Assembly (NCBI GenBank): GCA_000442015.1
Contig: KE561117.1
Location: 124,001-188,000 of the forward strand
Length of the DNA: 64,000 bases
Direction of reading: 5' to 3'
DNA from: Rozella allomycis CSF55
Lineage: Eukaryota
Below, one piece after another: positions 43,426-46,400 of the stretch. Positions within the stretch are counted from its first letter, which is position 1; every line of letters starts with the position of its first letter. Below the pieces are notes generated by a model. It was given only the letters and a program-made list of their open reading frames with translations, searched no databases and was not told the origin of the DNA. A program made the translations under genes and the position numbers.

Positions 43426-46400
43426 ATGCTAAAAGCGCGACTATATTCCTTCAAAGCGCATCCATTTATATTCCGATTTGGCACTATCCGGCCGTTGAAT
43501 GCCTACGCGATCTCGATCGACCCATCATCGCGCGCGAGAAATAGTGTGAGTGCAGTTCAGCAGGGCCACCTGAACCGGATAATCAACAGCAGCATCAAGA
43601 GTGCGAATCCAGTTAGTACGATCTTGCCATTCATCCAGACGTATATCCGGCAGCAGGAGCTAGTTTGTGCCGAGTATTTAGTGGAGTATATGAAAAACAA
43701 CCACGAAGCGTTGTACGAGCGGGAGGTGTTGAGTGTGCAGCTGTGCAATGCGTTTGTGCGGCAGTATATGTTGCGGAGTGTTGATGTTGAGAGGAGTGGG
43801 TATTGGGTGCGGGAGATGGAGAGGTATGGGGTGCGGCCGAATGGGCAGACGTATTTGATATTTCTGAGGGCTGAGCTGCGGAATGGCGGGGAGAATGTGC
43901 GGAGGGTGTTGGAGGAGATGCGGAAGGTGGGGGTTGGGCTGAGAGCTGTGTTGATGGTGCTGGATGAGGATGAGGGGGAGGCGTTGAAAGAGGTAAGGTG
44001 ATGAATGGGGTGGGATAGATTGTGAGGGAAGGTGGGAAGGGGATTGAAGAGTATTGGAAAGAGTTGAGAGAGATTGAACGTAAGGAAAGTAGCATGGAGA
44101 ACACAACAACTAGTGCAGCAAGTGCGTCAACAAGTGCATCAACAAGTGAACCTGCTACATCAACTAATTCAACTTCATTAATAAATGTGATGGAAATAAA
44201 TAAAGAAATAAATTCATCGTTTGGAATTGAATATTTGAGAAACGCATTGAAACCACTAGAAAAAGACTACAAGGATGATTTCCTGTTGCAAGAGGCAATA
44301 GAGAACAAATCATATGAAGCATATGAAGAGTTTGAAAAGATAATGAATGAAAGATTCTACAAGCGAGTTGGGATAGTGAATACCAAGGCGATCTCACCTA
44401 TCCTGACGCGACTGTCTGATAACATGATAAGAAAGATCCATGAGAGTTTGAAAGAGGAGAGTGGGGTTGTAGAGTTGATTAAGGGGATTAAAGCGAATAG
44501 AATTTGTTATTTGATTTTGAGTTTGATTTGTCGAATGGATTGTTATGATGAGAGTGGGAGAATTCAATATGCGAAATTGGTGTTTGATTTTGGAAGGGAA
44601 TTGGAAGAATCGCAGAGGAGTTTATTTAAAGAGAATGATAAGAAGATTAGAGCTATTATAAACAGAGAGAAATTGAAGAGGGACAGGAGTGTTAACAGTG
44701 ATAAGTTGAAAGGTGAAAATTTGAGCAGTGATAGCTGTGACAGGAGTGTTAACAGTGGCAATAGTAACAGTGATAACAGTGGAATAGAATCTACTTCTAC
44801 TCCCTCCACTACATCTACTACTTCTACTACTTCCCCTCCTACTACTGATAATTTTGAAAGAGATTTGTTTGTGATTGAAAAAGAATTAGATGTTCGATGG
44901 AGTGAAGAACAAAAGGTGATGATAGGATCAAAGTTTATAGATTTAATGTTGGATAATTGCCAAGTACCCATGTATTTATTAGATGCGAATGAAACGAATA
45001 GAAAGAATGTTAAAATATTTGAATTCAAGAAAGAGTATCCAACAGGGGTTATTAAATGTCATCCAATGTTTATTAATTTAATTAAAAAAGATACAAAGTT
45101 TACTCACATTAATGCATCAATGTTTCCGATGGTTGTTCCCAGTCGCAAGTGGGTAACAATAGACGAAGGTAATTGAATGAGTATAAATTGTTAATAGGTA
45201 AGTGTAGTAGTTGTACTTGTTACTAGGTAAGCTTAGTAGTTGTACTTGTTACTAGGTAAGCTTAGTAGTTGTACTTGTTACTAGGTAAGCTTAGTAGTTG
45301 TACTTGTTACTAGGTAAACATCTAATTCTTACTATTTATAGGTAATCTCTTTTAATTCTCCTTTACTAGGTAATCTCGTCTGTTTCTCCAATAATATAGG
45401 GGTTTTTTAACATTGTCTAATTGCACAGTTAGATTTATTGGGAATAAATTTCAATCAGCAGAATTTATTAAAAAGGCAGAACAAGTTGGAAGATTAAAGT
45501 TAATGTTTAATGCATTGGATATTCTTGGAAGAACCAGCTGGAAAATTAATTTTAAAATTTTGAATATTTTGATTGAATGTTGGAATAGAAATTTAGAAAT
45601 TGGTTCTCTTCCAAAACTATTAAATTTATCAGATTTCAATAAACCTAAAAAATTATCAGAAATGAAAAAAATTAAACAAAAATTATCTTCAAATCACAGC
45701 CAAGTTTGTTCTACTTTATACAAATTAGAAATAGCAAAAGCATTCGTTAATAAAACTTTGTATTTCCCCCATAACGTTGATTTCAGAGGTAGAGCTTATC
45801 CAATAGCCCCTCATCTAAGTCACATTGGTATCAAAGTTGTTTATTCTATTTAATAAAGGCGATGATGTCTGCAGAAGTTTATTACAATTCTCTACAAAGA
45901 AACCACTAGGCAAAAATGGTTTCAAATGGCTCAAAATTCACATTTCTAATCTATTTGGTCATGACAAGTAACAAGGATTAAATTAATTATTAAAGATGCT
46001 CTTTTCAAGATAGAATTAAATTTACTGAAGAAAATTCAGAAAATATTATTAGATCTGCTACTCAGCCACTAGATCACACGTGGTGGCAATCTGCTGAAAA
46101 TCCATTTCAGTTTCTAGCTGCGTGTATTGAATACAAGAATTGCATTGAAAGTGGTAATGTTGAGTCTTATGAATCTGCTATGCCTATGCAGTTGGATGGG
46201 TCATGCAATGGGTTACAACACTATGCGGCACTTGGCAGAGATTACAAAGGTAACAATGTTTAAGTAGGCGTTTATATAGGTATTCTATGATTAGTTCTTT
46301 CATTAAGGTATTCTATGATTGTTTCTTTCATTAAGGTAATGGATGTGTATTTCTATAATAAAGGCGCCAAGTCTGTAAATTTAATTGATGGTGAAAAGCC

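Follow-up and report, generated by a model that had tools for sequence, protein, structure and literature searches.

The mitochondrial (phage-type) RNA polymerase gene RPO41 of the fungal parasite Rozella allomycis is interrupted by 231 nucleotides (nt) that consist entirely of eight units placed end to end. In length and in their ends, these units are like the normal Rozella introns of the stretch analyzed here, namely positions 124,001 to 188,000 of contig KE561117.1 of strain CSF55 (64,000 nt; hereafter the window, to which all coordinates refer). The interruption is probably a tandem array of spliceosomal micro-introns, removed mainly unit by unit or in blocks of whole units. Two further arrays were found in the window, and the number of units in the RPO41 array varies between alleles, in unit-sized steps.

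Results

An interruption of RPO41 divides exactly into eight intron-sized units

The gene and the units of the array are as follows.

43690..47856, + strand: RPO41-type mitochondrial (phage-type) RNA polymerase gene of Rozella allomycis, placed by threading of the annotated protein P0001 and by Pfam matches to RPOL_N and RNA_pol
45169..45197, + strand: unit 1, 29 nt, GTAA..TAG
45198..45226, + strand: unit 2, 29 nt, unlike units 3-5 at 2 positions
45227..45255, + strand: unit 3, 29 nt, identical to units 4 and 5
45256..45284, + strand: unit 4, 29 nt, identical to units 3 and 5
45285..45313, + strand: unit 5, 29 nt, identical to units 3 and 4
45314..45341, + strand: unit 6, 28 nt, with an interior related to no other unit
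45342..45369, + strand: unit 7, 28 nt, first 8 bases common to unit 8
45370..45399, + strand: unit 8, 30 nt, its closing AG also serving the array as a whole as 3' splice site

The start of the gene follows the annotated protein, and the stop (TAA, 47854-47856) is proposed here. In a protein search, the downstream RPO41 exon matched two longer proteins only: the annotated protein itself (P0001, 1166 amino acids, 100% identical), which the National Center for Biotechnology Information (NCBI) names a phage-type DNA-directed RNA polymerase of Rozella allomycis CSF55, and one relative (39%). Near-length proteins, which might have been transcript-derived fragments, gave no match to this exon at an expectation value (E) of 1e-20 or below. 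P0001 threads exactly onto the window as assembled. The RPO41 exons carry the RPOL_N and RNA_pol domains (Pfam), are all open in the standard code and match both Pfam and relatives. By the P0001 match and the Pfam domains, this is the nuclear gene RPO41, as which a first-pass annotation made from the sequence alone had identified it. Five single introns of the gene were judged credible, with lengths of 26, 31, 28, 29 and 26 nt.

The eight units of 45169-45399 measure 29, 29, 29, 29, 29, 28, 28 and 30 nt. All eight start with GTAA and end with TAG, and all seven inner joints read AG/GT (the slash marks the boundary); the division into units of 28-30 nt, their ends and their joints are exactly those that the first-pass annotation had described. 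It had also called units 2-5 recent copies, in agreement with the identity of units 3-5 and the two differing positions of unit 2, whose interior is 91% alike to theirs. Tandem Repeats Finder reported a period of 29 over 45188-45317, with 4.5 copies and 97% matches.

A parser that chains abutting GTA..AG units of 24-34 nt each returned chains of eight and four units on the + strand of the window. As a chance control, 200 first-order Markov resamples of the window were parsed on both strands, and the longest chain comprised one unit in 4 resamples, two in 188 and three in 8. The eight-unit chain is far beyond chance. The heptamer TAGGTAA occurs nine times on the + strand of the window, and seven of these occurrences are inside the array. 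A search of 43000-48500 against Rfam at E up to 1 gave no match, so there is no sign of a small nucleolar RNA or other known RNA in the RPO41 arrays.

The array is real DNA and varies in copy number between alleles

Contigs of three DNA sequencing runs (X1, X2 and X5) from three studies, built with 31-letter words, were aligned on 44000-48000. The eight-unit array is real DNA and not an assembly artefact. A single X5 contig of 6712 nt runs through 44000-46550 with the array aligned and covers the bin 45206-45339 at 284.8 of 291.3, and X2 contigs extend into the array from either flank. Contigs of 31-letter words do not resolve the three identical units (3-5), the number of which is therefore taken from the assembly. 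The read check proposed in the first-pass annotation thus succeeded for the presence of the array, found in X5 and X2 contigs, and for the adjoining G run, which the reads correct (see below), but not for the number of identical units 3-5.

When the listed differences between X2/X5 and the window were applied to the window, the rebuilt allele had seven units of 31, 29, 29, 29, 28, 30 and 30 nt, all of them GTAA..TAG. X2/X5 lack 27 nt at 45180 and gain 2 nt in the first unit, which is thereby a fusion. Across units 6-8 they differ from the window by 11 substitutions and 5 small indels, while the flanking exons hold, among the differences listed, three upstream and none downstream. Inside the array the alleles are separated by two insertions of 1 nt each, in addition to indels of 27, 2, 1 and 1 nt, changes that only non-coding sequence would tolerate. 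In addition, one X1 contig joins 45166 to 45225 and so skips 58 nt, or 2 x 29, with a weak anchor of only 24 letters. Over 45150-45400, X1 contains two array versions, each at a depth of about 100x, compared with 200-270x in the flanks; one is window-like and the other is closer to X2/X5, which points to two alleles or two strains in the X1 sample. These may have been mixed in the assembly of the window, making it a mosaic. The copy number of the array varies between alleles, in unit-sized steps.

The whole array is probably absent from the mature coding sequence

As assembled, the exons meet the array as GAA G, 231 nt, GGG TTT, which is one base short after removal of the eight units. The first-pass annotation had raised this frame problem as a caveat and had suggested an undercalled G homopolymer at its position; both points were borne out.

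45399..45402, + strand: G run that lacks one G in the window; contigs of three runs have an extra G

An extra G behind 45398 is present at a depth of 586.2 of 586.2 in X2, 291.3 of 291.3 in X5 and 100.3 of 196.8 in X1, i.e., in X2, in X5 and in at least half of X1. In another X1 contig, the last 8 letters ahead of 45399 hang loose, which is how the extra G may look near the end of a contig. With the extra G the junction becomes GAA G/GG GGT TTT TTA, and taking out the eight units yields E-G-G-F-L, as part of W-x5-GG-F-L.

This product agrees with the protein family. The RPOL_N match (Pfam) ends at profile position 289, the second-last residue of the upstream exon, and resumes at position 292, the first residue of the downstream exon; positions 290-291 are filled by the last upstream residue and the junction codon. 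A metagenome scan returned 80 loci, all at 41% identity or less, which were used for the protein motif only and not for orthologous arrays. Nineteen of them, taken from among those with a match starting at query residue 1, were translated, and PW-x5-GG[FY] was uninterrupted in 19/19. The relative P0002 has the same W-x5-GG spacing. It is well supported by these comparisons that the whole 231 nt are intervening sequence, lying outside the mature coding sequence, as the first-pass annotation had proposed from the letters. A coding role for part of the array is ruled out by the 19 relatives, by Pfam continuity and by the indels between alleles.

The 30 nt of unit 8 can be read through in phase without meeting a stop, and if retained alone the unit would add 10 extra residues in frame instead of ending the protein prematurely.

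Unit ends are invariant while interiors have diverged to chance

Unit lineages were compared with one sequence per lineage (units 1, 3, 6, 7 and 8). The first four and last three columns (seven boundary columns) are invariant over the five lineages, whereas the other, interior columns, anchored at the ends, have a mean identity of 0.35 compared with 0.33 expected from base composition. In gapped alignments, pairwise identity of interiors is 41-64%, and the shuffled mean is 52% with a standard deviation of 8. The inner splice ends of the units are conserved. Interiors at chance combined with invariant ends disfavor a neutral minisatellite inside one big intron. That units 1, 6, 7 and 8 differ inside while keeping length and splice ends had been noticed before, and it is also true of the second allele.

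Two further arrays and a narrow intron length class occur in the window

The chain of four units found by the parser is a second array in RPO41, and an Argonaute/Piwi gene contains a third.

46250..46363, + strand: second array, in RPO41, 4 units of 30, 28, 28 and 28 nt
46250-46279, 46280-46307, 46308-46335 and 46336-46363, + strand: units of the second array, units 2 and 3 near-identical
18855-20770, + strand: Argonaute/Piwi gene (Pfam Piwi), with several 26-nt introns and the third array
20535..20588, + strand: third array, in the Argonaute/Piwi gene, 2 units of 26 and 28 nt

The middle pair of the second array is 90% alike inside, and the two units of the third array are 86% alike. As with the first array, the Pfam matches are continuous only if both of these are left out: RNA_pol stops at profile position 107 before the second array and resumes at 110 after it, and Piwi stops at position 222 before the third and resumes at 224. 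X5 covers the bin of the second array at 286.9 of 291.3. The 30-nt first unit of the second array has an in-frame stop.

The window holds three homology-supported intervening sequences longer than 50 nt (231, 114 and 54 nt). All three parse fully into units of 26-30 nt, and each of the three arrays holds at least one young duplicate pair. The first-pass annotation had suggested examining whether introns over 50 nt have a periodicity of this kind; run on the 64 kilobases of the window, the check found that 3/3 intervening sequences above 50 nt split into intron-sized units. Two further arrays in the window point to a recurring process.

The annotation's equation of unit size with normal intron size agrees with a peak at 26-31 nt in the window. 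Open frames joined in pairs by a GTA-start segment of 18-45 nt gave 123 such segments, of which 63 fall at 26-31 nt; for non-GTA GT..AG segments in the same survey the count is 37/175, with no peak. A search restricted to 24-33 nt gave 50 unambiguous intron candidates, 43 of them at 26-31 nt; they start with GTAA in 27 cases and end with TAG in 26 and AAG in 15. All eight units fit the U2-type consensus of the window, GTA[AT]...[TA]AG, as well as its intron length class. The candidates include false ones, e.g., on antisense strands. When the survey was extended to 450 nt, 47/596 shortest links lay at 26-29 nt, and beyond 33 nt each length accounted for seven links at most.

Other origins of such sequences were considered. 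The longer links (e.g., 41, 61, 63, 67 and 79 nt) lie before the start codon of a signal-peptide-like N terminus, are intergenic or have a 26-30-nt alternative, so that a by-eye check, which was not exhaustive, spoke against their being long single introns. Introners or introner-like elements were rejected because no dispersed copies exist within the 64 kilobases: when 12 units were searched against the window with blastn-short, 31 matches lay inside arrays and a single 17-nt match, at chance level, lay elsewhere (E 0.014). Unit identities between arrays are at the shuffled level. An element like the internal eliminated sequences of ciliates, or a reading in the ciliate code, does not suit a relative of the fungi whose exons are open in the standard code.

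Unit-wise removal and its alternatives

The tandem origin of the units, at least partly by recent duplication of one intron length, is well supported. The earlier proposal that introns multiply by tandem duplication agrees with the near-identical copies, the further arrays and the variable copy number. An ordinary intron of about 29 nt would have undergone repeated head-to-tail duplication, each step adding exactly one intron length, with units 1, 6, 7 and 8 as older copies, now diverged inside, and units 2-5 as younger, undiverged ones. Direct repeats of AGG(T) at the intron ends would favor slippage or unequal exchange by one intron length. It may be that only exact one-intron duplications are harmless, which would explain the pattern.

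In the transcript, the whole array would be cut out, joining ...E-G to G-F-L in the messenger RNA (mRNA). Each unit would be recognized and excised as its own intron, leaving a zero-length exon at each AG/GT joint. Because the units carry the usual GTAA, TAG and length, we infer that each is most likely excised in this way. The removal of one unit leaves its neighbors intact, so removal in any order or in whole-unit blocks would give the same mRNA. We assign a probability of roughly 0.6 to the interpretation that the array is a tandem array of spliceosomal micro-introns with unit-wise or block-wise removal as the main path.

A more far-reaching proposal, to which we give somewhat less than even odds, is that the spliceosome measures length and accepts only about 26-33 nt, that growth by whole modules is a main, ongoing route of intron gain, and that excision is serial and free of order. 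Arrays of up to eight modules, polymorphic in number, would then be cleared across zero-length exons. This would be recursive splicing in compact form, imposed by a rule of minimum size and not by extreme intron length. Unit-by-unit excision and a gauged intron length are both what we infer from the arrangement of the DNA.

Several observations weigh against unit-wise removal, or limit the data on which it is built. None of the 11 sequencing runs listed as matching 43500-48500 is recorded as RNA. The one RNA run aligned to the locus, X13, is a metatranscriptome with the same species label; its two 33-nt pieces are 90-95% alike and have long unlike flanks, so they are not RPO41 and are unrelated to splicing. 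A residues stand 6-12 nt ahead of the closing AG in every unit, at most candidate branch sites, since the introns of the window gave no branch consensus. The rebuild of the X2/X5 allele is incomplete, with 98 substitution and 34 indel rows outside it, and it yields three identical units that no 31-mer contig could cross. The intron-length survey covers 64 kilobases, relies on open-frame heuristics and includes false candidates, and long single introns were sought by eye at a handful of frame breaks, not exhaustively. Since unit 8 lacks an in-frame stop, its retention would be missed by nonsense surveillance. Finally, removal of the 231 nt in one step would give the same mRNA.

The last point leads to the possibility that the interruption is one long intron, excised in a single step, whose inner GTAA and TAG are idle relics of a minisatellite or are used occasionally. 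Such an intron would fit Pfam continuity and the 19 relatives equally well. Other fungal spliceosomes cope with introns of such a size, those of 336-391 nt in Schizosaccharomyces pombe and Cryptococcus neoformans being mentioned in 10.1101/224170 and 10.1101/226894, and the recent copies (units 2-5) keep their ends by descent, not necessarily by selection. We nevertheless consider a single long intron unlikely. Its inner ends should decay like the interiors, but the seven boundary columns are invariant in five lineages, and the rebuilt second allele keeps its unit ends and lengths of 28-31 nt despite indels. The units also match the ordinary introns of the window in length and ends, so that the splicing machinery could hardly pass them by. 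At the frame breaks inspected, a set that was not exhaustive, single introns above about 33-40 nt were never needed.

The remaining explanations are far less probable. The public gene model treats the region as introns of 126 and 86 nt flanking a 19-nt micro-exon, which places seven residues between E and GFL.

45295..45313, + strand: 19-nt "micro-exon" of the public model, from unit 5, located by threading and judged an artefact

P0001 does contain the seven residues and threads exactly onto the assembled window, but this depends on the run of four Gs, and the model is out of frame with the extra G of the three runs. No insertion is present between W-x5 and GG in the 19 relatives or in P0002, the RPOL_N positions 289 and 292 abut, and the model is doubtful at three other places in RPO41; it is very improbable that it is right. 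With the micro-exon out of frame once the extra G is added and 19/19 relatives free of an insertion, we judge it to be an artefact of a gene predictor that repaired the missing G. It is equally improbable that the array or the frame shift results from mis-assembly or that the gene is broken, a pseudogene. The draft is rough, in that 13/19 single Ns stand at the joints of false two-copy duplications, one of them inside RPO41 (46456-46657) and skipped by the X5 contig, and the number of identical units 3-5 is beyond the reach of 31-mer contigs. Against this, there are 0 Ns in any of the three arrays, the independent 6712-nt X5 contig spans the first array and X2 contigs enter it from both sides, the exons are open and match Pfam and relatives, and the frame is faulty at the G run alone, where the reads put it right. 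Micro-introns removed singly or in whole-unit blocks remain the interpretation that we prefer.

Draft errors and the public model elsewhere in RPO41

The window has 19 single Ns, e.g., at 2045, 2458, 3518, 4230, 4533, 9762 and 18693, and further ones at 24016, 31876, 37209, 42717, 46551 and 59366. Thirteen of the 19 mark the exact point where the two copies of a tandem duplication meet, with periods of 15-153 nt and 90-97% matches, which points to overlapping contig ends that the scaffolder left unmerged. These false duplications break reading frames. The one at 46456-46657 (period 107, N at 46551) lies in an RPO41 coding exon and shifts its frame; there, 93 nt are missing from the X5 contig, which has 13 different letters in their place, and the public model hides the duplication as a 301-nt intron (46486-46786).

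Near the 3' end of RPO41 (47827-47990), the public model has "introns" of 77 and 55 nt. Straight reading from 47827 gives nine more residues, ...Y-F-F-S, and then the TAA at 47854-47856, which matches the C terminus of P0002. The 30-odd C-terminal residues of the annotated protein are probably wrong. At 47276-47302, a 27-nt segment of the form GTAAC...CAG is in frame and has no stop; it accounts for nine residues of the public protein, and P0002 lacks these nine residues between K-Q and the PPNF motif. The segment is probably an unannotated micro-intron of 3n length. The 3' coding part of RPO41 (about 46900-47400) looks visibly C-richer than the 5' part, and the G+C content is 0.42 in the bin 42001-44000 compared with 0.31-0.38 elsewhere in the window.

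Discussion

The origin of spliceosomal introns is a long-standing question for which very few cases have been caught in the act. With three arrays in 64 kilobases, copies that range from identical to fully diverged and a difference in copy number between alleles, the process described here looks frequent and ongoing. If the units are spliced singly, they would form the densest known series of zero-length exons and would give direct access to the way in which a spliceosome of micro-introns judges length and chooses partners among many equivalent sites. There is also a practical consequence, in that gene predictors mis-model such arrays: the public protein carries a seven-residue insertion of intron sequence, and Rozella gene models and the phylogenomic data sets derived from them may hold similar errors.

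Comparison with known systems

The closest mechanistic parallel is recursive splicing. Removal via zero-length exons is known in Drosophila and mammals, with fungal cases described in 10.1101/226894 and 10.1101/224170: a 336-nt intron with one zero-length exon in SPNCRNA.445 of S. pombe (10.1101/226894) and a 375-nt intron of BOT1 in C. neoformans, split into 210 and 165 nt (10.1101/224170). The Rozella array resembles these in having AG/GT inside the intervening sequence, in the possibility of piecewise removal and in a single exon-exon junction. Known recursive introns measure hundreds of nt in yeasts to kilobases in animals and consist of a few large pieces that are not copies of one another. 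The Rozella array instead packs seven inner joints into 231 nt, with pieces of normal intron size, several of them recent duplicates. The long host intron that characterizes recursive splicing is absent, the total being 231 nt and the pieces 28-30 nt. Stepwise removal is documented by RNA data in the recursive cases, whereas the Rozella array is known from DNA.

In the human genes UBC and VCX3A, tandem repeats carry dual-specific AGGT splice sites, according to PMC10809524, which argues that repeat expansions with an AGGT site are less harmful, being spliceable. As in the genes presented there, the unit boundary in Rozella is AG/GT and any number of whole units could be removed. The UBC units are coding (ubiquitin monomers) and, by that account, are spliced stochastically to give different proteins; the Rozella units are non-coding and all must go. 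In the Rogers model (PMC3265369 and PMC4974935), tandem genomic duplication across AGGT creates a new intron that is spliceable at once. Near-identical tandem copies bounded by AG/GT are common to that model and to the Rozella arrays, but the model duplicates an exonic segment, part of which becomes intron, whereas in Rozella a whole intron is duplicated and no exon is repeated, so that new and old introns touch directly.

Stwintrons of the Pezizomycotina are complex intervening sequences that need more than one splicing reaction (PMC8469720). In a stwintron, the donor, branch or acceptor element of an outer intron is split by an inner one, with nesting and an obligatory order, whereas the Rozella units abut and none is nested. 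A stwintron reading of the array was rejected because the units stand end to end, each with complete ends of its own, and no signal is interrupted. Micro-intron genomes supply the other point of comparison: introns of about 25 nt are given for Paramecium and Nyctotherus in PMC5014332, and two putative introns of about 30 nt for S23 of R. allomycis in PMC6349667. The Rozella units share with the introns reported there a narrow length class near the lower limit of splicing.

No description of stacked micro-intron arrays was found in the literature searched, and a prior mention is possible, e.g., in the Rozella genome paper; the word "intron" is absent from PMC5701793. Set beside these systems, the RPO41 array represents a new form, in which the duplicated unit is the intron itself, at minimal intron size, with up to seven zero-length exons in a row.

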